A stretch of 64,000 nt of DNA, taken from NCBI GenBank assembly GCA_021413775.1, contig JAIOPS010000021.1, positions 5,014 to 69,013 of the forward strand, read 5' to 3'. The position numbers and the translations under genes were made by a program. Of this stretch, positions 3,615 to 50,183 are shown one piece after another. How positions within the stretch are numbered: the stretch's first letter is position 1; every line of letters begins with the position of its first letter. The stretch is from Candidatus Kaiserbacteria bacterium (GTDB taxonomy: Bacteria; Patescibacteriota; Minisyncoccia; Phycocordibacterales; UBA2100). The notes beneath the pieces were generated by a model. The model was not told where the DNA came from and did not search any database. It was given only the letters and a program-made list of their open reading frames with translations.

Positions 3615-4715
3615 TCAGATAGTTATTATGTCTCTCGCTTTTAGAGCACTTCCTTTTGCCTGATCGAGCGTGTCGGCCACAGCTGTAATGTGCCCCATCT
3701 TTCGCTGTTTCCGAGTCTCCATCTTACCGTATATGTGAACTTTTACACCCGGTATTTTTTCCGCTTCCTCCACACCTTTCGGTTCGGCGGGTCCGTTACG
3801 TTCTCCGAGAATATTTATCATGACGGCGGCCGGCGCTGCCATCGCGGTATCGCCCAGAGGCATCCCTGTAATCGCACGGATATGCTGTTCAAATTGCGAT
3901 GTCACAGCCCCCTCAATCGTCCAATGGCCGGAATTGTGCACGCGCGGCGCAACCTCGTTGACTACGACCTCATCGCCCGACAAAAACATCTCTATCGCAA
4001 ATACCCCCGCTCCTTCAAATGAAGCGAGTACGGAGTGCGCCAGATGCTCGGCTTTATCCGCAATTTTTTTGTCGACTTGTGCGGGGGCGATGACGGTATC
4101 GCAGATATGGTCCTTGTGGATAGTCTCGACGACCGGATAGAGGCGAATTTCTCCCGAAGCCGTGCGTGCGGCAACGACTGCGAGCTCCTTATCGAATCTG
4201 ACGAAGCCCTCCGCATACGCCGGGACGTTTCCGATTTTTCCGAGTGCCTCCGCAAGAGCAGAAACGTCGGCAACCGTCGCATTGCCGCGACCGTCAAAAC
4301 CTCCCGAGCGAGCCTTGAGAACGTACGGGTATCCGAGGCTTTCCGCGTCCTGCGGTTCGCAAAACGGTGCGACCGCAATACCGTGTTCTTTGAGAAATTC
4401 CTTCTGGCGCAACTTATCTTTGATGATTGCGAGCGTGCGGGGTGTCGGATGGACAGGAAAACCTTCCACCGCCAGCTGCTGGAGCGCCTCGGCATTCACC
4501 GATTCTATTTCGTAGGTCAACACATCGGATTTCCCGGCAAGCGCGCGTATCATCGTCGCGTCCTTGTAGTCTCCTTCTATCTGTTCGTCCGAAACCTGAC
4601 CTGCCGGCCCGCGCGATTCAGGGTCGAGGGTGACGACTCTCAGACCGAGGCGATGCGCAGCATCCGCAAGCATCCGTCCGAGTTGTCCGCCGCCGGCGAT
4701 GCCCACTGTTTTCAT
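3615..4715 (-). CDS. purK: N5-CAIR synthetase (ATP-grasp)
   Basis: 366 aa; MKTVGIAGGGQLGRM N-terminus; ATP-grasp core; adjacent to purE. Confidence 0.85.
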   Translation of the reverse strand: MKTVGIAGGGQLGRMLADAAHRLGLRVVTLDPESRGPAGQVSDEQIEGDYKDATMIRALAGKSDVLTYEIESVNAEALQQLAVEGFPVHPTPRTLAIIKDKLRQKEFLKEHGIAVAPFCEPQDAESLGYPYVLKARSGGFDGRGNATVADVSALAEALGKIGNVPAYAEGFVRFDKELAVVAARTASGEIRLYPVVETIHKDHICDTVIAPAQVDKKIADKAEHLAHSVLASFEGAGVFAIEMFLSGDEVVVNEVAPRVHNSGHWTIEGAVTSQFEQHIRAITGMPLGDTAMAAPAAVMINILGERNGPAEPKGVEEAEKIPGVKVHIYGKMETRKQRKMGHITAVADTLDQAKGSALKARDIITI

Positions 4716-5242
4716 AGACGCGAAAGTATAAAATCCGCCCTCTCCGGTACCGGGAGAACCGGCACGGAAATAATGTCGTAGCCGAGTTCTGTATAGGCTG
4801 TGCGAATCGCCTCATGTATCTCCCGTGCCTGTTCGGGTGTCTCTGTCCGTGCTTCGTCCGCCTGAAAGTCGACGAGGTCGAGCAAGAAGACCGCCCGGTA
4901 CTTCGACGCATTGAGCATCTCTGTAAAGGCTTGGCGGATGGGTTCGTTATTCAGACGGAAGTAGGCGACAGAGTCCGGCACGCCGCGGTCGAAGAAAAAT
5001 GTCTCTTCAGGCGGCACTGCGCGTTCCATATTGTATTTGCGCTCCGCTATCCGGAAGAGCCAATCGTCGGTCGCACGAATCTGTTCGATAGTGAGACCCA
5101 GGGCCAGCTCCTCCTCGAAAAAGAGCCTCGCGGCCTCCGGAAGAATATTGTGCCCTCGCTTCTCCAATTCGTTCACAAGCGTTGTTTTACCCGCGCACGG
5201 ACCGCCCGTGAGTACGTACCAGGGCGGAGTTATTGCGTTCAT
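4712..5242 (-). CDS. P-loop NTPase, AAA_28-like (NadR-C-terminal/nucleoside-kinase-like ATPase)
   Basis: 176 aa; Walker A GGPCAGKTT near N-terminus; Walker-B-like FLLDLVD; 4-nt overlaps with purK and purQ, so clearly part of the pur transcription unit. Confidence 0.6.
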   Translation of the reverse strand: MNAITPPWYVLTGGPCAGKTTLVNELEKRGHNILPEAARLFFEEELALGLTIEQIRATDDWLFRIAERKYNMERAVPPEETFFFDRGVPDSVAYFRLNNEPIRQAFTEMLNASKYRAVFLLDLVDFQADEARTETPEQAREIHEAIRTAYTELGYDIISVPVLPVPERADFILSRL

Positions 5243-10578: not shown

Positions 10579-11253
10579 ATGCAGAATTACGAAGTCGAAA
10601 TAAAAGCGCTCCTGGGCACACCTGAAAAGGCCGATGCCATCAGGAGTGCGCTTAAGAAAATCGACCCGTCCTGCGAAATACTGTCGCGCAACAAACAACT
10701 CAACCATTACTTCACCGGCGGTTCGCTTGAGAACCTCGTAGAAGTCGTACGTACGCACCTCACGCCGGAGGCCGCGTCGCGGCTCGACTCGATGGCTGCA
10801 AACGCGAAAGAGTATTCCGTGCGCACACGCGACAAAGACGGACAGGTGCTCCTCGTCGTCAAAGTTTCCGTGGGTTCTGACACAAGCTCAAACGGTGTCG
10901 CGCGTATGGAGTTCGAAGAATGGGTCCAGCTCACGCTTGAGGAGCTGGATGCTCTCGTACTGACTGCGGGATTTACGTATCAGGCGAAATGGTCCCGGGA
11001 GAGAGAAGAGTACGTGTGCAACGGCACAAACATTACGCTCGACAAAAACGCCGGATACGGCTGGCTGGCGGAATTTGAACGCGTTGTCGACGATGAAAGC
11101 AAGGTCGCGGGCGCACGGGCGGATATCGAATCGCTGATGCAGACGGTCGGCGCGAAGGAGCTGCCGCAGGACAGGCTTGAGCGCATGTTCACCTTCTACA
11201 ACGCCCACTGGCCCGAGTACTATGGGACCGAAAAAATATTCATAGTAGAATGA
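10579..11253 (+). CDS. CYTH-domain protein (triphosphate tunnel metalloenzyme; CyaB/ThTPase-like)
   Basis: 224 aa beginning MQNYEVEIKAL (EXEXK-like signature of CYTH). Ends 6 nt before dcd start. Confidence 0.5.
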   Translation: MQNYEVEIKALLGTPEKADAIRSALKKIDPSCEILSRNKQLNHYFTGGSLENLVEVVRTHLTPEAASRLDSMAANAKEYSVRTRDKDGQVLLVVKVSVGSDTSSNGVARMEFEEWVQLTLEELDALVLTAGFTYQAKWSREREEYVCNGTNITLDKNAGYGWLAEFERVVDDESKVAGARADIESLMQTVGAKELPQDRLERMFTFYNAHWPEYYGTEKIFIVE

Positions 11254-12838: not shown

Positions 12839-14107
12839 ATGGAACTCTACCCTCACATAAAGAAGCAGGACAAGAAAGTGTACGACGCGATACAGGGCGA
12901 GGAAAAGCGCCAGGCGGAGGGACTTGAACTCATACCCTCTGAAAACTACGTCTCGCGTGCGGTCCGTGAGGCAAACGCCTCCTCGCTCACAAACAAGTAC
13001 TCCGAAGGATACCCAGGCAAGCGTTATTACGGCGGGCAGGAATATACGGACGAAGTGGAGGTGTTCGCCATCGAGCGCGCGAAAAAGCTTTTCGGTGCGA
13101 AGTACGCCAACGTCCAACCGCACGCAGGCGCCCCCGCGAATGTCGGCATGTACTTCGCGCTGCTCGAGCCGGGAGACACCGTTCTGGGCATGGACCTCTC
13201 GCACGGCGGTCACCTCACCCATGGACACCCCGTGACCTACCTCACAAAAATCTTCAATTTCGTCCGCTATAAGATGAAGAATATTGAAACCGGCGAAATT
13301 GATTACGACGAGATGCTGAAAGTCGCGAAGAAATCAAAGCCGAAAATCGTCCTCGCCGGCTACTCTGCGTATCCCCGTGAACTCGACTATGCGAAGTTCG
13401 TTTCGATTGCCCGGGAAGTCGGCGCGTACGCCGTAATGGACATCGCGCACATCGCAGGTCTCATCGCCGGCAAAGCGGTGAAGAATCCGTTCGATTACGG
13501 CTTCGACATCATGACGACAACGACCCACAAAACTCTCCGCGGACCTCGCGGCGGCATGATACTCACGCGCGAAGACGCCGATTTCGCGAAGAAAATAGAC
13601 AAATCAATCTTCCCCGGTCTTCAGGGAGGACCCTTGATGCACAACATCGCCGCAAAGGCAGTATGTTTCGGCGAAGCGTTGAATCCGAAGTTCCGTACCT
13701 ACGCGAAACAGATTCTCAAAAATGCCAAGGCCATGGAGAAGGTCTTCAAGGCCGCCGATATCCGCATGATTACGGGCGGCACATCGAACCATCTCATTCT
13801 TGCGGATGTGTACGGCTCACTCGGTATCTCCGGCAAAGAAGCCGAGACCCTGCTCGACGAGGTCGGAATAACGCTCAATAAGAATTCCATCGCCGACGAT
13901 GTGCGCGGACCGATGGACCCGTCGGGCATCCGTTTCGGCACGCCCGCCATCACGACACGCGGCTTCAAAGAAAAGGAGTCGGTCCGCGTCGCAGAACTCA
14001 TGATTGAGACACTCAAGAACAAAAGTGATAAGAAGAAGCACCGGGCGGCGCGTGAAGAAATCCGTAAGATGTGCAAGAAGTTCCCGATTCCTGAATCGTT
14101 CGTCTAG
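12839..14107 (+). CDS. glyA: serine hydroxymethyltransferase
   Basis: 422 aa; ELIPSENY, GYPGKRYYGG, TTTTHKTLRGPRGG (PLP lysine) motifs. Confidence 0.95.
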   Translation: MELYPHIKKQDKKVYDAIQGEEKRQAEGLELIPSENYVSRAVREANASSLTNKYSEGYPGKRYYGGQEYTDEVEVFAIERAKKLFGAKYANVQPHAGAPANVGMYFALLEPGDTVLGMDLSHGGHLTHGHPVTYLTKIFNFVRYKMKNIETGEIDYDEMLKVAKKSKPKIVLAGYSAYPRELDYAKFVSIAREVGAYAVMDIAHIAGLIAGKAVKNPFDYGFDIMTTTTHKTLRGPRGGMILTREDADFAKKIDKSIFPGLQGGPLMHNIAAKAVCFGEALNPKFRTYAKQILKNAKAMEKVFKAADIRMITGGTSNHLILADVYGSLGISGKEAETLLDEVGITLNKNSIADDVRGPMDPSGIRFGTPAITTRGFKEKESVRVAELMIETLKNKSDKKKHRAAREEIRKMCKKFPIPESFV

Positions 14108-18510: not shown

Positions 18511-19707
18511 TCAGCCCGACCGTTTTGAAAGTCGTAATCGGAGGTCCGAAAGCGCATTCATGTAGGTCATGTACGCGTCATAGGGTGATTCGTACGGCGA
18601 GAAATACGCGTGTACATCACCGTCTCCGAACCACTTCGTACACATGTAGTAAAAATGGTCCGAGGTCTGGAGCTTGCGCCAATCCTCAATGAGACGTCCG
18701 TCATTGGCAAGAATGACATCCTGCTCAAGAGCGTAAATCGCTTCAATCGCCGCCTTCTGCATGGGATTCCCCACCCAGGCGGTTAAATCTCTGTCGGTAT
18801 CAGCCCACGTGACGGTGTGCGGCATGTCGACTTCATCGCGGACATCGTATGACGCAATGACTTCAGAAGGCGTTTTGAAATCGATGCCGTTATTTTTACC
18901 GAGCTCCTGCGGCAGTTGTTCCAGAAACGCAAATATCCCCGTATCTTCCCACTGATGTTCGCCGAACGTTTCGTAATCCATGAAAAGGTTCACAGTGTCA
19001 CCTTCCGCCGCGCCGAGCCAGGCGCCGTACTTTTCCGCAGTGAGGGGCCACTCCGACCAGTCGCGCGACGAGAACCGGAACGCGAGGTCATCGGACAGGC
19101 GGTAATTTTTCAGAAGGAGTCGCGTATTTTGCGAACCGACCGGTTTGTAGACGTAGTTCGGCGACCGCCATCCGAGTATCGGGTCCCATCCCTCGGCGAG
19201 GATGCCCGCGTATCCGTTGGCGTCCGCCCAGCCGGCGAGGTCATTGCGGTATGAGAGTTCGGTGTTGCGGAAGACCCTGGGCCTCACACCGAAAAGCCGT
19301 CTGATGATTTCACGATGCTTTGTTACCTGCTGTTCGAATTCGGTCGGCGAATAGAAAAAAGCGAGCGAGTGGTAGTATGTCTCCCCCAAAACCTCCACAC
19401 GCCCGGTATCAATGACTTTTTTGAAGAGTTCTATCGCCTCCGGAGCGTAGCGCTCAAGCTGTTCAAGTGCTACTCCCGAGAACGAGAACGATACTTTGAG
19501 TTCCGGATGTTTTTGGAGCAGCTGGAGCAGCAGGCGCGTCGCCGGGATGTACGATTTCGAGGCGACCTTTTCCAGTACTTTGCGGTTATTGAGGTCGCTT
19601 TCCGAACGGTCGTTGAAATATTCCGGGTCAGTACCAATGTCGAAGACCCGGTACTTTTTTACCCGGTAAGGTTGGTGGACTTGGAAATAGAAGCACACAC
19701 TTTTCAT
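18511..19707 (-). CDS. glycoside hydrolase family 57 (alpha-amylase/branching-enzyme family)
   Basis: ORF 18511..19875; start at MKSVCFYFQVHQPYR (19707). HQP motif of GH57 region I and EGW/Glu-Asp core follow. Confidence 0.8.
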   Translation of the reverse strand: MKSVCFYFQVHQPYRVKKYRVFDIGTDPEYFNDRSESDLNNRKVLEKVASKSYIPATRLLLQLLQKHPELKVSFSFSGVALEQLERYAPEAIELFKKVIDTGRVEVLGETYYHSLAFFYSPTEFEQQVTKHREIIRRLFGVRPRVFRNTELSYRNDLAGWADANGYAGILAEGWDPILGWRSPNYVYKPVGSQNTRLLLKNYRLSDDLAFRFSSRDWSEWPLTAEKYGAWLGAAEGDTVNLFMDYETFGEHQWEDTGIFAFLEQLPQELGKNNGIDFKTPSEVIASYDVRDEVDMPHTVTWADTDRDLTAWVGNPMQKAAIEAIYALEQDVILANDGRLIEDWRKLQTSDHFYYMCTKWFGDGDVHAYFSPYESPYDAYMTYMNALSDLRLRLSKRSG

Positions 19708-19795: not shown

Positions 19796-21001
19796 TCACA
19801 CGAGTTCGTGCAGAATAGTATCGACTTTATATGCAGCGTCCGCCCAGGTGAGCTTATCCGCCTCTTCGCGCGCATGCATGCTCATCGTCTCGCTGAGAGC
19901 GGGCATGCCGACAACCGACAGTATTTTGTCGGCCATATCGTCTATGTCCCAAAAATCGACTTTGAGTGCATGGCGCACGACTTCCGCGACTCCGGATTGT
20001 TTCGAAATGATGACCGGCGTCCCGAGACGCATACTTTCGAGCGGCGTGATACCGAAAGGCTCCGAGACCGACGGCATAACGAACAAATCCGCAGTTACGT
20101 ACATATCGTGCCTGTCCGCTCCTGTGAGGAAGCCCGTGAACGTGACGTTGTTCGAAATGCCGAGTTCGGCCGCCAGGTCAAACATCTGCGCATCCATATC
20201 TCCCGAACCCGACACCACAAACATAACCTTTGGATTCTGTTGTAAAACCCGCTGTGCGGCACGCAGAAAATGGTCCGGACCTTTCTGAAGCGTTATCCGT
20301 CCGAGAAACAGTACGATTTTATAACCGGACTCTTTCAGTGAGCGCATCCTCTTGCTCGGCAGACCGCTCGGAGCTGTACTCTCATCGATTCCGTTGTAGA
20401 CCACGCGCACTTTCGAGGCGGGTATGCCGTACTTTTCAACGATGATATTTTTGGTAAGTTCAGAAACCGCAATAACGACATCCGCCGCTTCCATTCCCGC
20501 ACGCTCGATAGTGTATACGTGACTGTTCACGCCATCCGCCCCACCGCTCCGGTCGAATTCCGTCGCATGCACGTGCACGATGAGCGGCTTCCCGGTCGCC
20601 TTTTTTGCTTCGATGCCCGCACCGAAGGCGAGCCAGTCGTGCGCGTAAATAACGTCGAAGGACTCCTCACGCGCGATGCTTGATGCGATTGCCCGGTATC
20701 GTTCGACTTCCTGGAACAGGTCACTGCCGTAAAATCCGCCCGATTCCCTCTCCCGCAGATAGCTCTTCGTCGTCAGGTACGGCGAAAGCATGGAATCAAT
20801 TGCGCGGACGGTAACATTTTGGTCCTCTGCGAATATCATCCGCGCATAGGGAGAGGACAGCTCGAACTTCTTTGGCATGACAAAAAGCACTTCAAACCCC
20901 CTTTCTGCGAGCGAGCGCGTAAGGCCCTGGCATGCGACGCCCAAACCTCCTGAGTTGAAGGGAGGAAATTCCCATCCGAACATCAGAATGCGGGTTTTCA
21001 T
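19796..21001 (-). CDS. GT4-family glycosyltransferase (glucan/sucrose-phosphate-synthase-like)
   Basis: 401 aa; N-terminal GGLGV motif; C-terminal E-x7-E region (PSVSEPFGITPLESM); heads the GT4-GH57-GH15-PGI/PMI-ROK gene run. Confidence 0.75.
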   Translation of the reverse strand: MKTRILMFGWEFPPFNSGGLGVACQGLTRSLAERGFEVLFVMPKKFELSSPYARMIFAEDQNVTVRAIDSMLSPYLTTKSYLRERESGGFYGSDLFQEVERYRAIASSIAREESFDVIYAHDWLAFGAGIEAKKATGKPLIVHVHATEFDRSGGADGVNSHVYTIERAGMEAADVVIAVSELTKNIIVEKYGIPASKVRVVYNGIDESTAPSGLPSKRMRSLKESGYKIVLFLGRITLQKGPDHFLRAAQRVLQQNPKVMFVVSGSGDMDAQMFDLAAELGISNNVTFTGFLTGADRHDMYVTADLFVMPSVSEPFGITPLESMRLGTPVIISKQSGVAEVVRHALKVDFWDIDDMADKILSVVGMPALSETMSMHAREEADKLTWADAAYKVDTILHELV

Positions 21002-21059
21002 GTCCCAATTCTACCAGCAAACAGAGCGCTATCCTGCAACTCGCCCGACATGGTAGGCT

Positions 21060-21818
21060 GTGCGCATGGATTGTCCGCGTGTCGCCATATTTGATCTCGA
21101 CGACACGCTCGCCGAGAGCTTTCAGCCGCCTTCCGCGTCGATGGTCGTCAAGCTCAGTGCGCTTCTTGAAAAAGTTCCCGTCGCGATACTCTCCGCGGCG
21201 GGATTCCCGCGCATCGAAGCAGACTTTTTGCACAAGCTTACGGATTCCCCCCGTATTGATTTCTTTTACATATTCCCTAACAGTTCCGCACAGTGCTTCA
21301 TTCACGAAAACGGCAAGTGGAAAAGCGCATATGATTTCCTGCTCTCCGCTGAGCAGCGTCAGGCGATACGTACGGCGCTCGACGAGAGCGTACGGGAGAC
21401 CAATCTCGAGCTGAACCCCAAATATGAACCGGTTATTCTCGACAGAGACGTTCAAATTGCCTACGCGGCCCTCGGACTCGACGCCAGCGAAGAAGATAAA
21501 CGTGCCTGGGACCCCGATAAGGCGAAGCGCAAGCGGCTGAAAGAGTCTCTCGATAAACGATTGCCGGATTTTGAAGTGCTCATAGGCGGCAAAACGACCA
21601 TGGACATTACGCACAAAGGCATCAACAAAGCGTACGGCGTCCGGTGGCTATCAAAAAAATTAAGCATCCCCGCGAGTGAAATGCTCTATGTCGGCGACGC
21701 ATTCTATGAGGGCGGAAACGATACGGTGGTAATTCCGACGGGTATCCGCACCCGTGCTGTATCCGGCCCCGCCGAAACAGAGACCGTCATCGACGAACTT
21801 CTGAACTTCTGCGCGTAA
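21060..21818 (+). CDS. HAD-superfamily hydrolase, subfamily IIB (sugar-phosphate phosphatase-like)
   Basis: 252 aa; motif I FDLDDTL; Cof/SPP-like cap; YVGDAFYEGGND motif IV; divergent from the GT4 gene. Confidence 0.65.
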   Translation: MRMDCPRVAIFDLDDTLAESFQPPSASMVVKLSALLEKVPVAILSAAGFPRIEADFLHKLTDSPRIDFFYIFPNSSAQCFIHENGKWKSAYDFLLSAEQRQAIRTALDESVRETNLELNPKYEPVILDRDVQIAYAALGLDASEEDKRAWDPDKAKRKRLKESLDKRLPDFEVLIGGKTTMDITHKGINKAYGVRWLSKKLSIPASEMLYVGDAFYEGGNDTVVIPTGIRTRAVSGPAETETVIDELLNFCA

Positions 21819-40777: not shown

Positions 40778-40982
40778 AACGCGTATCTATCACGGGTGCC
40801 GGGTGCGTCGGGCTCAAGAGTTTTTGTGCGGGATGCGGTAATCGGCCACGGTTACTAATTCGCTTCGCTCATAAGTACCGCCGGCCCGGGCTCGCCCGTC
40901 GCCAAGGCGACATGGCTCCGCCTTTCGATTCCCCGCGTACAGTGCGAAGGCACTGTACGCGTCCCCTCCTCACTTCGTTCGG

Positions 40983-41053
40983 TGCGGGATGCGGGAATCG
41001 AACCCGCGTCTAATGCTTGGGAAGCACTCGTTCTGCCACTGAACTAATCCCGC
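40983..41053 (-). tRNA. tRNA-Gly (anticodon CCC)
   Basis: Reverse complement GCGGGATTAGTTCAGTGGCAGAACGAGTGCTTCCCAAGCATTAGACGCGGGTTCGATTCCCGCATCCCGCA; canonical cloverleaf, anticodon loop TTCCCAA, T-loop TTCGATT. No encoded CCA. Confidence 0.85.
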
Positions 41054-41264
41054 GTACGGCATAAATCTATCACACACGATGCCTGCCAAACCAACCAAGA
41101 GCGAGCGCGGCAATGGCCTTTTGAAAACCCCGCAGGTTCTAACGACCTCAAGCGAGTGCGGACGTGTTCTTTTCCGTCTTGTGCCTCGCCCGTCGGGGCC
41201 GAGATTGAGCGCTGGCGCAGCAGCGCCAGATAGCGACGGAAAAGCACACGTCCGCCGAGCGCGA

Positions 41265-41639
41265 CTACCACCAGGTAAACGCTTTCTTCAATTTCTGCAT
41301 GAGAGAGGTCGAAGTCGCAACGGGCTCCGGCGCGACAGGCTCCACGATGACGATGAGTCCTTCTCCCTGTTTACCCACGTCGTACTGTTCCCGCAGAAGC
41401 TCTTCTCGGCCGCGGTCAGTTTTGAGCTTGGCGGTCTCGTCGTCGAGCCTCGCTGATTGCTGAGCCAGTGAATCGCGCTGCAGCTCAGCCTCTCTGCGGA
41501 GCTGATGTGACTCGCGTTCCTTGCCATAGACCTTCCAGACACCCATGGCGACGACGACTACCACCGCGAGGAGCGCAAACGTCCCGAGCCGACGAAAGAA
41601 AAGTCGCAGCGGCTCGTTCTGATTGCGGATAGTTGCCAT
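41265..41639 (-). CDS. FtsB/DivIC-like septum-formation protein (TM + coiled coil)
   Basis: 124 aa; N-terminal TM (FALLAVVVVVAMGVW) followed by heptad-rich coiled coil (LRREAELQRDSLAQQSARLDDETAKLK). Confidence 0.45.
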   Translation of the reverse strand: MATIRNQNEPLRLFFRRLGTFALLAVVVVVAMGVWKVYGKERESHQLRREAELQRDSLAQQSARLDDETAKLKTDRGREELLREQYDVGKQGEGLIVIVEPVAPEPVATSTSLMQKLKKAFTWW

Positions 41640-46069: not shown

Positions 46070-46077
46070 TCACTGCA

Positions 46078-46428
46078 CTGCATCGATAAGCCGGGTTCTG
46101 TGCCGTCTCTGCCTTGCGACAGAGAGGTAGCAGCCATGTATCTGGGATGAACGTTGCCGTTCACCTCAAGCGACTCTTTCGTGAAGTCCAATTGGTTCTC
46201 CACGAACACGGTCTTGCACGCAAGTAGGATTTTTGCCGTTGCACCCTCTGTGTTTCCACAAAGGCTGATCCTTGCGGATCCCCTCGCCTCTCGGCTCGGG
46301 CGTCTCTGTTCGCATCCCTGGGATTACCCCGGCGGGCGTTACCCGCTACCCTGCTCCGTATATCTTGCGAAATACGGGCGTGTCCGGACTTTCCTCTGAT
46401 TCTTGCGAACCAGCGACTGCTTAATGCA
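46078..46428 (-). ncRNA. rnpB: RNase P RNA (bacterial type A), ~350 nt
   Basis: Minus strand contains the universally conserved P4 elements GAGGAAAGUCCGGAC (5' half) and ACAGAACCCGGCUUA (3' half). Between them, CAGGGUAGCGGGUAACGCCCGCCGGGG matches E. coli CAGGGUGCCAGGUAACGCCUGGGGGGG. No credible ORF spans the region. Ends are approximate. Confidence 0.8.
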
Positions 46429-46435
46429 GAGGCTC

Positions 46436-46883: not shown

Positions 46884-46947
46884 CTTTCATTTCAAGGTAC
46901 GAAGCGAAAAGCCCCGGCGGCATGCCGGGGCTTTTAACTTTTTAGGA

Positions 46948-49299
46948 TTAAATTATCTCGCACGTACCTCCCGCACACGCCAATTCCTTTTTCTGTTCGG
47001 TCTCGTCAGTTCTTTCGTAGATGACGAGCTTCGAGTAGTCTATCTTCGGGAATTTTGCTGCAAGCTCCTCATACTTCTTTTTATCAATCGCTTCGTATGG
47101 AGCGAGACGGTAGACGTGATTTTCGCGCGGCAAGAATGAGAGACCGCCGATGATGTCCCAATTGTCCGATATCCACGCGACACACTGCACCCACTCTTCT
47201 TCGCCCACCGAAATGGTCGCCGACGGATTGTGTTCGGTAAAGTTGAGCTTCACCATCTTCCAATACTCGAGCTGCTGAATCGCGGAAAGGTCGTTCTTGA
47301 AGACCGAGCCCGAAGGTGCTTTCACCGGGAACTCAAGCACGTATGTGGATGCCTCGCCTTCCACCTGTCCTACTTCCGGGTATGCCTGTACACCCTGGTC
47401 GCGCATCATTTTGAAGAGCGAATCGGTTGCCGAGATGCGGACGCGGCGGATGTAGTACTGCGAGTGGCGCGGGTGAATGCCGGACGAGCAGTTGAATGTC
47501 TGAGATACGGTGCCGGACGGCTTTACGCAGGTGATGGAGCTCGACATCGGAATACCGAAGCGCTTCGCGTACAGAGCATTTGTCTTTTTCGCTGTTTCGC
47601 GCATTTTCTTCATCATCTTCGCATCGCGCACAACAGGAGAATCCCACTGGCCGGTGATGGACACGCCGAGAAGGCGCTCGGCTTCACAGTTGTCGGTCCA
47701 TTCCTTGGAGATGTAATTGAACTTCACGAGAGTCGACTGGTAGGTGCCGAGGAGTGTCGCGAGCTTCGCCTTGCGGAGCAACGACTTCTCGGTGTCATCC
47801 GCGCGCGCAATGACTTCCGAGAGGTTGCAGAACTGCTTCGACTGGAGGATGATTTCGCCGCACGGATTCGTTCCGACCTGGCCGATGAAATTACCCTTCT
47901 TTCCGTACTTCTTCTGAAGAAGCTTCAAACGTCGCTCAGGCATTGTCTTTTCGAGGCTTCCGCGGTTGAAGATGCCGCGCTCTCCGGTGCCGGATTTCAT
48001 GAGCGCGACCCACTCGTCCATGAGCTCGGCGTTGGTGGGCTTGGTCTCATAGACGGCGGAGTTGTTGGCAACGGAGCGCCACGGGTCTGTGAGGTAGAAT
48101 TGCCCTTTCTTAGCGTCGCGGATTTCCACATCGTCGAGGTCAGAAAGAGAAATCATCGCCGTGCGGCGCACTCCTCCCGCGACGACGCATTCACCGATTT
48201 TGCAGATGATATCGTGTGCATCAATGTTGCGCAGGCGTCTGCCCTGTCGGCGGAGAATTCTTTCACGCGCGAATGTGAGGAGTGAACGGAGCGGTTCCGG
48301 GCCGGATGCTTTACCGCCCATCGTCTTGAGTCTCGCACCAGCGGGACGAATAGTTGAGAAATCGAAATCGACATCTTTGCCCGCATACCAGGTGTTGAGC
48401 CCGAGCGTGAGCGCATCACACCAGCCCTCCTTGGTGTCAGCGACGACATGCAACGGAATCTTTTCGCCTGTCTGCTTTTCGATTTGCGGAAGCTGCTGAA
48501 TGTTCTGGCTTTCAACCGCGTATCCGACACCGCATCCCTGCATCGAGAGGTACATGATTTCCGCAAAATCCTGCAATTTTACCGGAGCGGTAAACGAGCA
48601 GTTGTAGAAACATGTGTTGCACTTCTTGGCGGGCGCTCCGGCGAATTGCATCGCGCGCATCGACGGCATGACTTCCTGTTTCAAAATCGCTTCGCGGATT
48701 TCCGCGTACTCTTTTTTCGTGAGTTTGTCCCCGAGATTCTCTTTCATAAATCCGACATAACGGTCGACGGTCTCAATCCACGTCTCACGGCGCTGTTCGC
48801 TTTCTACCCAGCGCGCATAGGTGCGGAGATAAACGAACTCTCCGAGAGGATTGTTCTTGAAGTACTGTTTCGATTCTTCCGCGAGCTTCCGGACGTGCTC
48901 CGGTACAGAGCCCTGCTCCTCGCGGATCTTGTTGTGCTCCGCACGGTAGAGGATGTAGTTCTTGGATGCCGACACATAGTCGGAGAGCATGAGCTGGCGC
49001 TCCACCTCGTCCTGGCAGCCTTCGACGGTGGGGAGAAAGTTCTTGTACGTCTTGGCGATGCGCATCATTTCGCCGGCGACTTTGTGCGCCACGACCACCG
49101 CCTCATCTTCCGAGCCCTCATTCGAGGCGAGCATCGCTTTTTGAATAGCGCGCGTAATCTTATCGAACTCAAACGGTACGATGCGACCATCGCGCTTCTG
49201 TATATTCGGCAAGTACTTTTTGTACACGCGATTTGCTGACGCTTCCTGAGAGACTCCTATAATGCCCGCTTTTTTGCGAGAGGTGGTTGACTGTGCCAT
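46948..49299 (-). CDS. nrdJ: class II (adenosylcobalamin-type) ribonucleotide reductase with N-terminal ATP-cone
   Basis: ORF 46948..49305 (TTG); first ATG at 49299 gives MAQSTTS. ATP-cone IQKRDGRIVPFEFDKITRAI; class II NPCGEI motif; C-terminal Cys pair (CAGGTCEII). Confidence 0.85.
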   Translation of the reverse strand: MAQSTTSRKKAGIIGVSQEASANRVYKKYLPNIQKRDGRIVPFEFDKITRAIQKAMLASNEGSEDEAVVVAHKVAGEMMRIAKTYKNFLPTVEGCQDEVERQLMLSDYVSASKNYILYRAEHNKIREEQGSVPEHVRKLAEESKQYFKNNPLGEFVYLRTYARWVESEQRRETWIETVDRYVGFMKENLGDKLTKKEYAEIREAILKQEVMPSMRAMQFAGAPAKKCNTCFYNCSFTAPVKLQDFAEIMYLSMQGCGVGYAVESQNIQQLPQIEKQTGEKIPLHVVADTKEGWCDALTLGLNTWYAGKDVDFDFSTIRPAGARLKTMGGKASGPEPLRSLLTFARERILRRQGRRLRNIDAHDIICKIGECVVAGGVRRTAMISLSDLDDVEIRDAKKGQFYLTDPWRSVANNSAVYETKPTNAELMDEWVALMKSGTGERGIFNRGSLEKTMPERRLKLLQKKYGKKGNFIGQVGTNPCGEIILQSKQFCNLSEVIARADDTEKSLLRKAKLATLLGTYQSTLVKFNYISKEWTDNCEAERLLGVSITGQWDSPVVRDAKMMKKMRETAKKTNALYAKRFGIPMSSSITCVKPSGTVSQTFNCSSGIHPRHSQYYIRRVRISATDSLFKMMRDQGVQAYPEVGQVEGEASTYVLEFPVKAPSGSVFKNDLSAIQQLEYWKMVKLNFTEHNPSATISVGEEEWVQCVAWISDNWDIIGGLSFLPRENHVYRLAPYEAIDKKKYEELAAKFPKIDYSKLVIYERTDETEQKKELACAGGTCEII

Positions 49300-49339
49300 G
49301 CGCAAGAACTTTAACTTCTAATCACTAGCTCACTACTAA

Positions 49340-49650
49340 TGGGATGTTTATTGTACTCCTCCGGGGACCTCGGATATCGGAGATAAAGAGGTGGATAACT
49401 TGTCGCTCGGTGGCATGGCTATTTTGGAAAACGTGATTTTGCCGCTGCAAAATCACTCAATCCTCGGCCGTCGCCTGCGGGGTTTCCAAAATAGCCATGC
49501 CACGCCTCACTCTTAGCAAAATGAAGAGTGCCAACGTCTCTAAGCGAGCGTGGCGGTGTGTTTTTGGACCTCTCGGAGCCGAAGAGGCGAGGATTAAGGA
49601 CTTTTCAACAGAAAAGTCCGGGTCCAAAAACATACCGCCCGCGAGCGCCC
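49340..49650. promoter_or_regulatory. structured intergenic element (5' leader of nrdJ or independent ncRNA): two modules of long-range perfect inverted repeats each enclosing a perfect internal hairpin
   Basis: Module 1: 20-bp perfect IR TGGCATGGCTATTTTGGAAA (49411-49430) / TTTCCAAAATAGCCATGCCA (49483-49502), enclosing 10-bp hairpin GTGATTTTGC-cgct-GCAAAATCAC. Module 2: 12-bp IR TGTTTTTGGACC (49559-49570) / GGTCCAAAAACA (49621-49632), enclosing 9-bp hairpin GGACTTTTC-aaca-GAAAAGTCC, plus the CACTCTT..AAGAGTG hairpin between modules. No ORF >60 aa of protein-like composition. Confidence 0.3.
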
Positions 49651-49652
49651 CT

Positions 49653-50183
49653 CTATAAGGCTACCTGGTCGCCGATGGAGACATTGTGAGCCTTTGCCCA
49701 GCCTGCAGGGAGCTCGAGCACGTATCGTGCCGCCAAATCCGGCATAAAGCTCGCCGGATATGACTCAGGTTTCGCATTTTGAGCCATATATACAACCTTT
49801 CCATCGGCCGTTATCCATAGAATGTCTATCGAAAAGAGCATGTCCTTCATCCAGAAGCTGAAAATACCGTCCGCCGGGAAGATGAAGAGCATGCCTTCGT
49901 TTTCCCCGAGCCCCGCCTGTCCGCTCAGGCCCTGTTCCCGCTTCGCGGGGGTGTCGGCAATCGCGACACGCACCGAAGTCCCCGCGATAGATATCGTTTT
50001 TGTCGGCGAGAGAGTTGATGAAACGACATTTCGCACATCCCGGTATAGAGAGGACGGCGTAACGGCATTCATCGCCGCCGCATAAATGCTGCCGCCGATG
50101 AGCGCGCACACTCCGGCAGCGCCGAGATAGATAAGAATTCTGCGTGTCTCGGAGTTTCTGAAGAGTGATTGAATCATAGTCAT
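49653..50183 (-). CDS. DUF192-domain secreted protein
   Basis: 176 aa; signal peptide; EQGLSG..GMLFIFP..FWMKDMLFSIDILWI..VLELPAGW matches the DUF192 pattern. Confidence 0.6.
   Translation of the reverse strand: MTMIQSLFRNSETRRILIYLGAAGVCALIGGSIYAAAMNAVTPSSLYRDVRNVVSSTLSPTKTISIAGTSVRVAIADTPAKREQGLSGQAGLGENEGMLFIFPADGIFSFWMKDMLFSIDILWITADGKVVYMAQNAKPESYPASFMPDLAARYVLELPAGWAKAHNVSIGDQVAL

Follow-up and report, generated by a model that had tools for sequence, protein, structure and literature searches.

A dispersed structured element at gene boundaries in a Candidatus Kaiserbacteria lineage, present in two inverted copies upstream of nrdJ

The DNA analyzed here (the window, 64 kb of a Candidatus Kaiserbacteria contig) carries a cluster of long inverted repeats in the gap between nrdJ, which encodes a class II ribonucleotide reductase, and a DUF192 gene. 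We find that this cluster consists of two diverged, head-to-head copies of a dispersed structured element that sits at gene boundaries, was previously undescribed and is new to Rfam. We are highly confident both of its identity as a dispersed element and that it is not specific to nrdJ.

Results

Two inverted copies of one element in the gap between DUF192 and nrdJ

The inverted repeats in this gap are real and far beyond chance. The gap spans 49300–49652 (353 nucleotides, nt), bounded by the nrdJ ATG (49299) on one side and the DUF192 stop (49653) on the other, and it holds no credible open reading frame (ORF), as the preliminary description had stated; the ORFs there are only 41–58 amino acids (aa) long. 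The outer arms of the first module (49410–49430 / 49483–49503) proved to be 21 bp long and 100% complementary, where 20 bp had been claimed, and they enclose the reported 10-bp hairpin (49433–49442 / 49447–49456). Those of the second module (49552–49570 / 49621–49639) are 19 bp long and 95% complementary, contain the perfect 12 bp reported before, and enclose the reported 9-bp hairpin (49598–49606 / 49611–49619). The TTTTGGA...TCCAAAA pattern said to be shared by the two modules occurs twice, compared with 0.02 occurrences expected, and in a comparison with dinucleotide shuffles the 352-nt region gave z = -7.1 on the minus strand and z = -8.2 on the plus strand, with 0/100 shuffles folding as well.

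Alignment of module A with module B on the same strand gave no useful match, and alignment with the reverse complement of module B gave a match from end to end, short flanks included. Module A is therefore homologous to module B on the opposite strand, and what had been described as two modules is a pair of inverted copies of one element, not a single nrdJ-specific unit. Two smaller hairpins of the preliminary description find their place in the same arrangement: the GCCGAAG stem-loop is present, not as a separate hairpin but as helix P2 of copy B, and the CACTCTT...AAGAGTG hairpin is present and comprises the spacer together with copy A's degenerate 5' flank. A window-wide repeat search found a third full element, copy C, of the same geometry, and a truncated half-copy in tandem with it, both 8 kb from copies A and B. 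We call canonical the strand of the three-copy alignment (minus for copy A, plus for copies B and C). The two genes and the elements are as follows.

46948–49299, minus strand: nrdJ, class II ribonucleotide reductase with an ATP-cone, 783 aa, Pfam domains confirmed
49653–50183, minus strand: DUF192 gene (Pfam DUF192), with its TAG stop (49653–49655) adjoining copy B
49395–49520, canonical strand minus, the same sense as nrdJ: copy A (modA), full element, 123 bits; P1 arms 49410–49430 / 49483–49503, P3 hairpin 49433–49456 with loop AGCG on the minus strand, P2 at about 49459–49481
49509–49531, no strand assigned: spacer hairpin CACTCTT...AAGAGTG between copies A and B, its AAGAGTG being the degenerate AAGCGAG 5' motif of copy A
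49533–49656, canonical strand plus, antisense to the flanking genes: copy B (modB), full element, covariance-model scores 120 and 102.5 bits; P1 arms 49552–49570 / 49621–49639, P2 at about 49571–49595, P3 hairpin 49598–49619 with loop AACA, P0 motifs AAGCGAG (49542–49548) and CGAGCG (49642–49647)
41141–41270, plus strand: copy C, full element, 116 bits; P1 arms 41158–41178 / 41235–41255, P3 loop AGCA
41096–41137, plus strand: truncated 5' half-copy (AAGAGCGAG; P1 5' arm and start of P2), just upstream of copy C and most like copy A

The element is a covarying three-way junction

The three full copies of the window align end to end, and most of their stem positions differ by compensatory changes; even among these three sequences, double changes affect 23 of the 40 predicted pairs. 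The nrdJ, LepA, and MurJ proteins of the window have exact records at NCBI under Candidatus Kaiserbacteria bacterium. Related loci were gathered by a metagenome scan with nrdJ, which yielded 80 loci, from groundwater, with 71–93% protein identity, so that the sample comprised the window plus 80 related Candidatus Kaiserbacteria loci (∼1.04 Mb). Searched with a covariance model of the three window copies, this sample yielded 38 more, and the refined model found 44 copies, 40 of them distinct, or roughly one copy per 20–25 kb in this lineage. Because all loci were gathered around nrdJ, the copy density and the share of copies next to nrdJ are biased, and gene direction is inseparable from replication direction. 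Gene calls in the loci are ORF heuristics, and the counts given below include orthologous, non-independent copies, locus groups having been collapsed only in the comparison of P0 plus P1 stability.

Across the 40 distinct copies, all 40 base pairs covary. Paired cells make up 89.8% of the alignment, compared with 57.5% in column shuffles and 39–48% when partners are slid, and 493 cells carry double changes. The element is ∼105–125 nt long and folds into a three-way junction. It is closed by helix P0 (GCG/CGC), within which a tandem A-G/G-A mismatch is conserved; helix P1, of ∼20 bp, bears a conserved T4:A4 tract; and the junction bears P2, with a CAG bulge and a G-N-N-G loop, and P3, closed by C-G and capped by an invariant AGCA loop. 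Read along the canonical strand, the consensus runs from AAGCGnG through the P1 5' arm with TT(TT), P2, a junction ending in AG, and P3 to a short junction, the P1 3' arm with AAAA, and CGAGCG. The helices covary freely, and the loops and junctions are conserved. The earlier suggestion that selection acts on structure is borne out by this pattern.

No known family explains the element. A scan of 49200–49800 against Rfam 15 gave best E values of 0.3–9, all to unrelated miRNA and snoRNA models that matched only the long hairpin, and no Rfam 15 family, cobalamin and other riboswitches included, matched at element positions in the window or in three further loci (L080, L052, and L030). Neither ARAGORN nor the Rfam tRNA model found a tRNA- or tmRNA-like identity, BLAST searches of phage and plasmid collections returned no match to the element, and we found no relevant description in the literature on repeats, terminators, and noncoding RNAs of the Candidate Phyla Radiation. 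The degenerate pattern TTTTSS..GATTRAG..SSAAAA..CGAGCG had 12 matches in 185,579 species genomes; none was confirmed by the model, and they are hence taken as chance.

Copies adjoin stop codons with a fixed polarity

For 31 of the 40 distinct copies, a long ORF encoded opposite the canonical strand ends close to P0, its stop codon at -1 to +12 nt. The genes that end there are unrelated to one another, being nrdJ, DUF192, a gene of 553 aa, the 124-aa gene beside tRNA-Gly, and genes of LepA size (590–597 aa). The canonical 3' end of copy B is 4 nt from the DUF192 TAG stop, and that of copy C is 2 nt from the TAG stop (41265–41267) of a 124-aa gene (41265–41639, minus strand), with tRNA-Gly (40981–41053, minus strand) on its other side. 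An element directly follows the nrdJ stop in 19 of 70 loci. The adjoining stop is TAG in 22/31 copies, compared with 33% of long ORFs; for nrdJ itself the stop is TAG in 12/14 cases with an adjoining element and in 19/50 without (Fisher p = 0.002). Copy A and its orthologues in L015 and L030 are exceptions to this stop rule, as are four orthologous loci with divergent gene starts that are described below.

At the far end of the element, -10-like boxes, the start of the next gene, or tRNA-Gly lie within ∼10–30 nt. A stop-like T-R-R triplet also follows the far end, and copy B has TAGAG on both sides; by reading of the flanks, the match between flanking triplets is exact in only ∼4/19 copies. 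From these positions, we conclude that copies lie at gene boundaries in a set orientation, with one end at a stop codon and the other facing the next promoter or gene.

Two further roles for these positions were considered and rejected. The conserved CTCGCTT end was examined as the -35 of the next promoter, but a 16–17-nt spacing to a -10 box is seen in only two orthologous locus groups and fails at copy C. Stop-codon read-through or recoding is contradicted by inspection of the flanks: the helices covary regardless of codon phase, and a coding extension is thus not credible.

TATAAT-like boxes lie only 6–9 nt before the ATG of genes that follow elements at L064 (∼2200–2230), L055 (∼2690–2725), L063 (∼4715–4740), and L065 (∼19500–19520), a spacing that suggests many leaderless mRNAs in this lineage.

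A second branched family with a long closing stem, unrelated in appearance, starts 1–4 nt after stops in L026 (7165–7290), L047 (4018–4143), L043, and L037. It follows nrdJ or the 124-aa gene. Its terminus, CCTCGCT, is similar, but the conserved part of its interior (...CACCACYRCTGTATG...TTTGCTGCGCGATGTTCTC...) is not the same, and only the closing helix may be common to both structured families.

The fold is kept in place at orthologous sites

Positional orthologues of the element are 71–86% identical and, in several groups, mutually closest, compared with 33–69% identity among copies within one contig. Stem changes between positional orthologues comprise 231 double-compensated and 44 wobble changes, compared with 107 that involve an unpaired state. 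This preponderance of compensated changes indicates selection for the fold in place, and the low identity of copies on the same contig argues for neither concerted evolution nor recent bursts.

The presence of the element is patchy across the nrdJ tree. Besides the half-copy in the window, a truncated copy was found in L025. In L080, an element occupies the site between nrdJ and a convergent gene; at this site, the closely related L022 and the window itself have an ordinary bidirectional terminator, a hairpin plus T-run. The junctions of filled and empty sites do not align cleanly in the pairs L080/L022 and L084/L087, and a genome-wide search for excision footprints found almost nothing besides two remnants that hold only both termini: one in L049 at ∼11045–11075 (GACGCTCG-8 nt-CTCGCTTAAGG) and one in L043 after the stop of the 124-aa gene (GGGCGCTCGCTAGG). 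These remnants look like deletions between flanking CGCTCG direct repeats.

nrdJ has a control region of its own downstream of the element

The preliminary description had offered a riboswitch-like leader or tandem aptamers for nrdJ as one explanation of the repeats. On the nrdJ tree, only 5 of ∼73 nrdJ loci have the element upstream of nrdJ. The window has two copies there; L015 and L030 have one in nrdJ sense, at the position of copy A; and L064 and L040 have one in the opposite sense. The nearest relatives of the window (L014 and L016–L018) have no element upstream of nrdJ. Closer to the gene, and on its strand, lie two conserved sites.

49391–49398, minus strand: DnaA-box-like TTATCCAC, 3 nt beyond copy A and 99 nt upstream of the nrdJ ATG; part of the nrdJ control region, not of the element
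49350–49355, minus strand: TACAAT, -10-like box, 56 nt upstream of the nrdJ ATG; likely the nrdJ promoter

The DnaA-box-like site or a one-base variant of it (TTTTCCACA, TTGTCCACA, or TTATCAACA) occurs in 60 of 73 distinct nrdJ upstream regions, and TACAAT follows ∼42 nt past it in 62 of 73; beyond these come a conserved gAACnTCC and the start context ATGCGCATG. This module precedes nrdJ whether or not an element is present and is also found in L014–L083. Such conservation suggests that, in this lineage, control of the class II reductase is linked to DnaA. NrdR boxes are tandem 16-bp palindromes near nrd promoters; the motif conserved here close to the promoter is a DnaA-box-like one instead. 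The start context itself (49297–49305) reads TTGCGCATG in the window, compared with ATGCGCATG in most relatives, and the true nrdJ start may lie two codons upstream of the ATG used here.

Because the control module lies between copy A and the ATG, both copies are outside the probable 5' untranslated region (UTR) of nrdJ. A cis-regulatory leader specific to nrdJ, be it a riboswitch, tandem aptamers, or an attenuator, would account for a highly structured element upstream of the gene and for the positional orthologues of copy A in two relatives. Against it stand the absence of the element upstream of nrdJ in ∼68 of the 73 loci, its place upstream of both conserved sites, the same element after unrelated genes, the lack of an Rfam match, and the fact that the two supposed aptamers are on opposite strands. 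We give such a leader virtually no chance; the riboswitch reading is rejected, and the element senses no ligand for nrdJ. The preliminary description had also held that its structural reading would be undone by homologous loci lacking conservation or covariation or by recurrence of the repeats dozens of times genome-wide as a simple element; homologous loci without the element and recurrence in the genome were both found in part, but what recurs is not a simple, near-identical, high-copy repetitive extragenic palindromic (REP) sequence.

Other features of the window

An ordinary bidirectional terminator (AAAAGCCCCGGC...GCCGGGGCTTTT) lies at 46889–46953 of the window, between nrdJ and a convergent 124-aa gene. 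RNase P RNA of bacterial class A is encoded at 46071–46432 on the minus strand (122 bits). In two relatives it scores below the 100-bit gathering score, with 66 bits in L080 (14349–14740) and 59 bits in L052 (12897–13419, a 520-nt span), and from these matches the RNase P RNA of the clade appears to be divergent or to carry insertions.

Discussion

Our favored proposal, which we put forward tentatively, is that the element is a gene-boundary punctuation mark or insulator that acts as a folded single strand, most likely of RNA; taken by itself, a boundary or terminator-like mechanism is held as tentatively, or a shade more so. Action at boundaries is supported by the position at stop codons, selection in place, the site shared with a terminator, and the second stop-adjoining family. 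In this proposal, the element would stop, process, or cap transcripts that cross between adjacent transcription units, selection would hold it in place, and recombination would gain, lose, and flip copies. In the window, the pair would keep the DUF192 unit apart from the nrdJ promoter and its DnaA-box control (the DnaA-box-like site with TACAAT). Nothing marks the element as mobile cargo: none of the 48 proteins of the 64-kb window proved to be a transposase or an integrase, and a plasmid or phage origin was rejected for lack of a match.

A considerable body of observations weighs against this proposal, and much of it concerns the strand. The better-folding, canonical strand is antisense to the adjoining gene. 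It is more stable than the other strand by a mean of 7.3 kcal/mol, in 35 of 40 copies; P0 and P1 alone favor it by 6.2 kcal/mol, as seen in 35 of 39 copies and, by locus group, in 20 of 23 (p ∼3e-6); and when arms are aligned with each other without regard to orientation, G-T wobbles number 62 on the canonical strand, compared with 32 on its complement (p = 0.003). Since the antisense strand folds better, a 3'-UTR hairpin in the sense of the mRNA is not the form favored by selection. We considered a mutational strand bias behind the wobble asymmetry and rejected it: the gene-sense strand being G-rich, deamination bias would be expected to give the opposite asymmetry, and we therefore take the one observed to reflect selection. 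Transcription signals also fail to support the proposal, as no conserved promoter (-10 box) for transcription of the canonical strand was seen at the element copies, and no T-run follows the closing helix in either orientation in nearly all copies. Downstream of nrdJ, an ordinary terminator is present in 5 of the 19 loci that have the element there and in 15 of the 51 that lack it, a difference that is not significant; the element as a substitute for ordinary nrdJ terminators was rejected for want of significant complementarity across loci. Finally, the element occurs in both orientations at the site between DUF192 and nrdJ, and at four orthologous loci it lies between two genes that start divergently, a place in which a terminator would serve no purpose. 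At these four loci, the canonical 3' end is 5–8 nt before the ATG of a conserved 41–44-aa ORF (MSFLFHKRTKK...), and the divergent gene starts 12–20 nt from the other end. A scan with a terminator consensus gave no match at the ends of the element.

The four loci (L065 ∼19250–19375, L080 ∼20940–21068, L029 ∼12865–12999, and L037 ∼20265–20391, on the minus strand of each) share further features. Their small ORF, MSFLFHKRTKKxxxWVWGVVAxLVSLxMVxFFAPGL, probably encodes a small membrane protein and has no Shine-Dalgarno sequence, and the divergent neighbor belongs to the 124-aa gene family (MAIRSRNDPVRLFGRRL...).

The main rival to a punctuation element is an old selfish or semi-domesticated structured repeat, like REP sequences and bacterial interspersed mosaic elements (BIMEs) or like attC sites, whose single-stranded DNA fold would be recognized by a transposase or recombinase encoded elsewhere. 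We regard it as unlikely but as a serious contender. Insertion favoring TAG stops would explain the excess of these stops, both overall and at nrdJ, and a strand-specific fold on the antisense strand is what the bottom strands of attC sites show. The repeat reading also fits conservation of the structure and of a few unpaired bases but not of helix sequence, the patchy distribution among close relatives with both orientations at one site, the BIME-like inverted pair and the half-copy in the window, the termini-only remnants in L049 and L043, and the T-R-R triplet at the far end together with the TAGAG flanks of copy B. It is harder to reconcile with the absence of near-identical copies within a contig, which leaves no pointer to recent transposition, and with a fold that stays intact at orthologous sites despite saturating divergence, unlike that of a decaying selfish copy. 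The window revealed no transposase or integrase, the element has neither the attC core motifs nor the GTAG motif of REP sequences, the neighbors are syntenic housekeeping genes rather than cassettes, and few flanking triplets match exactly. In addition, GC skew suggests that the folded strand would be the leading-strand template if the genes run with replication, which is not the strand exposed to transposases of the IS200/IS605 type. A still bolder idea, which we think unlikely, is a structure-specified, strand-specific system without described counterpart that marks gene ends at (UAG) stops, as a single-stranded DNA substrate for a recombinase or transposase or as ∼40–50 near-isostructural small RNAs against gene ends in bacteria of the Candidate Phyla Radiation.

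A multicopy family of small noncoding RNAs, or of structured 5' ends of antisense transcripts, would be read from the canonical strand, for example divergently from the promoter of the next gene. Its members would act either in trans, through a protein that binds motifs of the AGCA and AGCG type, or in cis, on the 3' end of the gene upstream. The better fold of the canonical strand agrees with this, as do its purine-rich conserved loops and tandem A-G/G-A mismatch: the conserved unpaired bases are purine-rich on that strand, and the tandem would be C-T/T-C on the other. The four loci with the small ORF must transcribe the canonical strand, the element there filling the space from a TATAAT-like box to the ATG, which starts 5–8 nt after P0, and copy A and its orthologues are in nrdJ sense. 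But no conserved -10 box precedes the canonical 5' end at a constant spacing, no terminator follows the canonical 3' end, and the contexts are heterogeneous, ranging from a 5' UTR and the 3' UTR of a convergent gene to sites past the terminator of another gene and purely antisense ones; we consider this possibility distinctly improbable. Palindromes in duplex DNA for a dimeric protein, which the preliminary description had named as an alternative, and cruciforms would profit from the long perfect arms and the conserved T4:A4 tract in P1. However, the arms covary and are not conserved, which fits a fold and not a sequence-specific duplex site, the strong wobble asymmetry between strands is unexpected for a duplex or a cruciform, and the conserved positions are the unpaired ones. 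We reject this explanation as very improbable.

Candidate Phyla Radiation genomes are tiny and compact, and to our knowledge almost nothing is known of how these bacteria end, separate, or process their transcripts. An element that is abundant, constrained in structure, absent from Rfam, placed at stop codons, and best folded on the "wrong" strand could reveal a lineage-specific punctuation of transcription units or a new class of structure-recognized genetic element. The analysis describes a new family by a covariance model, a consensus, and ∼40 instances, and it cautions against labeling such hairpin clusters as gene-specific riboswitches. The DnaA-box-like site and promoter module would tie the expression of ribonucleotide reductase to replication initiation in this lineage.

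Among known systems, the REP sequences and BIMEs of enterobacteria resemble the element in being extragenic palindromic units that lie mostly just after stops and often form inverted pairs. REP sequences are said to affect mRNA 3'-end stability, termination, and, when no more than ∼15 nt from the stop, translation. The element differs in being three times longer, in its three-way junction, and in lacking the GTAG head; its copies share structure, not sequence, and number tens rather than hundreds. No REP-associated tyrosine transposase (RAYT) is among the 48 proteins of the window, the 64 kb that were checked. With a branched fold of 105–125 nt, no GTAG head, and a within-contig identity of 33–69%, the element does not belong to this class.

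Integron attC sites are, like the element, defined by structure, fold on the strand antisense to the preceding ORF, directly follow that ORF, have a similar size, and combine a conserved base that carries polarity-defining unpaired bases with a variable interior. Their R''/R' cores (RYYYAAC / GTTRRRY) are absent from the element, whose termini are AAGCGAG...CGAGCG. The copies stand isolated beside housekeeping genes (about one per 20 kb), with no cassette arrays and no integrase in the window, and membership in the attC class was rejected.

Correia (NEMIS) and ERIC/IRU elements are likewise bounded by inverted repeats, intergenic, ∼100–150 bp long, co-transcribed with their neighbors, found in either orientation, and perhaps flanked by a short target duplication. 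They have conserved terminal repeats and many near-identical copies, whereas the "terminal repeats" of the element covary. The element was not assigned to the miniature inverted-repeat transposable elements (MITEs): its arms covary, it has no near-identical paralogues, and beyond the TAGAG that flanks copy B there are few other exact matches.

Ordinary intrinsic terminators occur in this lineage as well. The element differs from them in its branched interior, its conserved loops, and a stabler fold on the opposite strand, and it was rejected as a member of that class in view of a hairpin that is present and a T-run that is absent. It shares with them a GC-rich closing hairpin at the ends of transcription units and, in close relatives, the very site at which a terminator stands.

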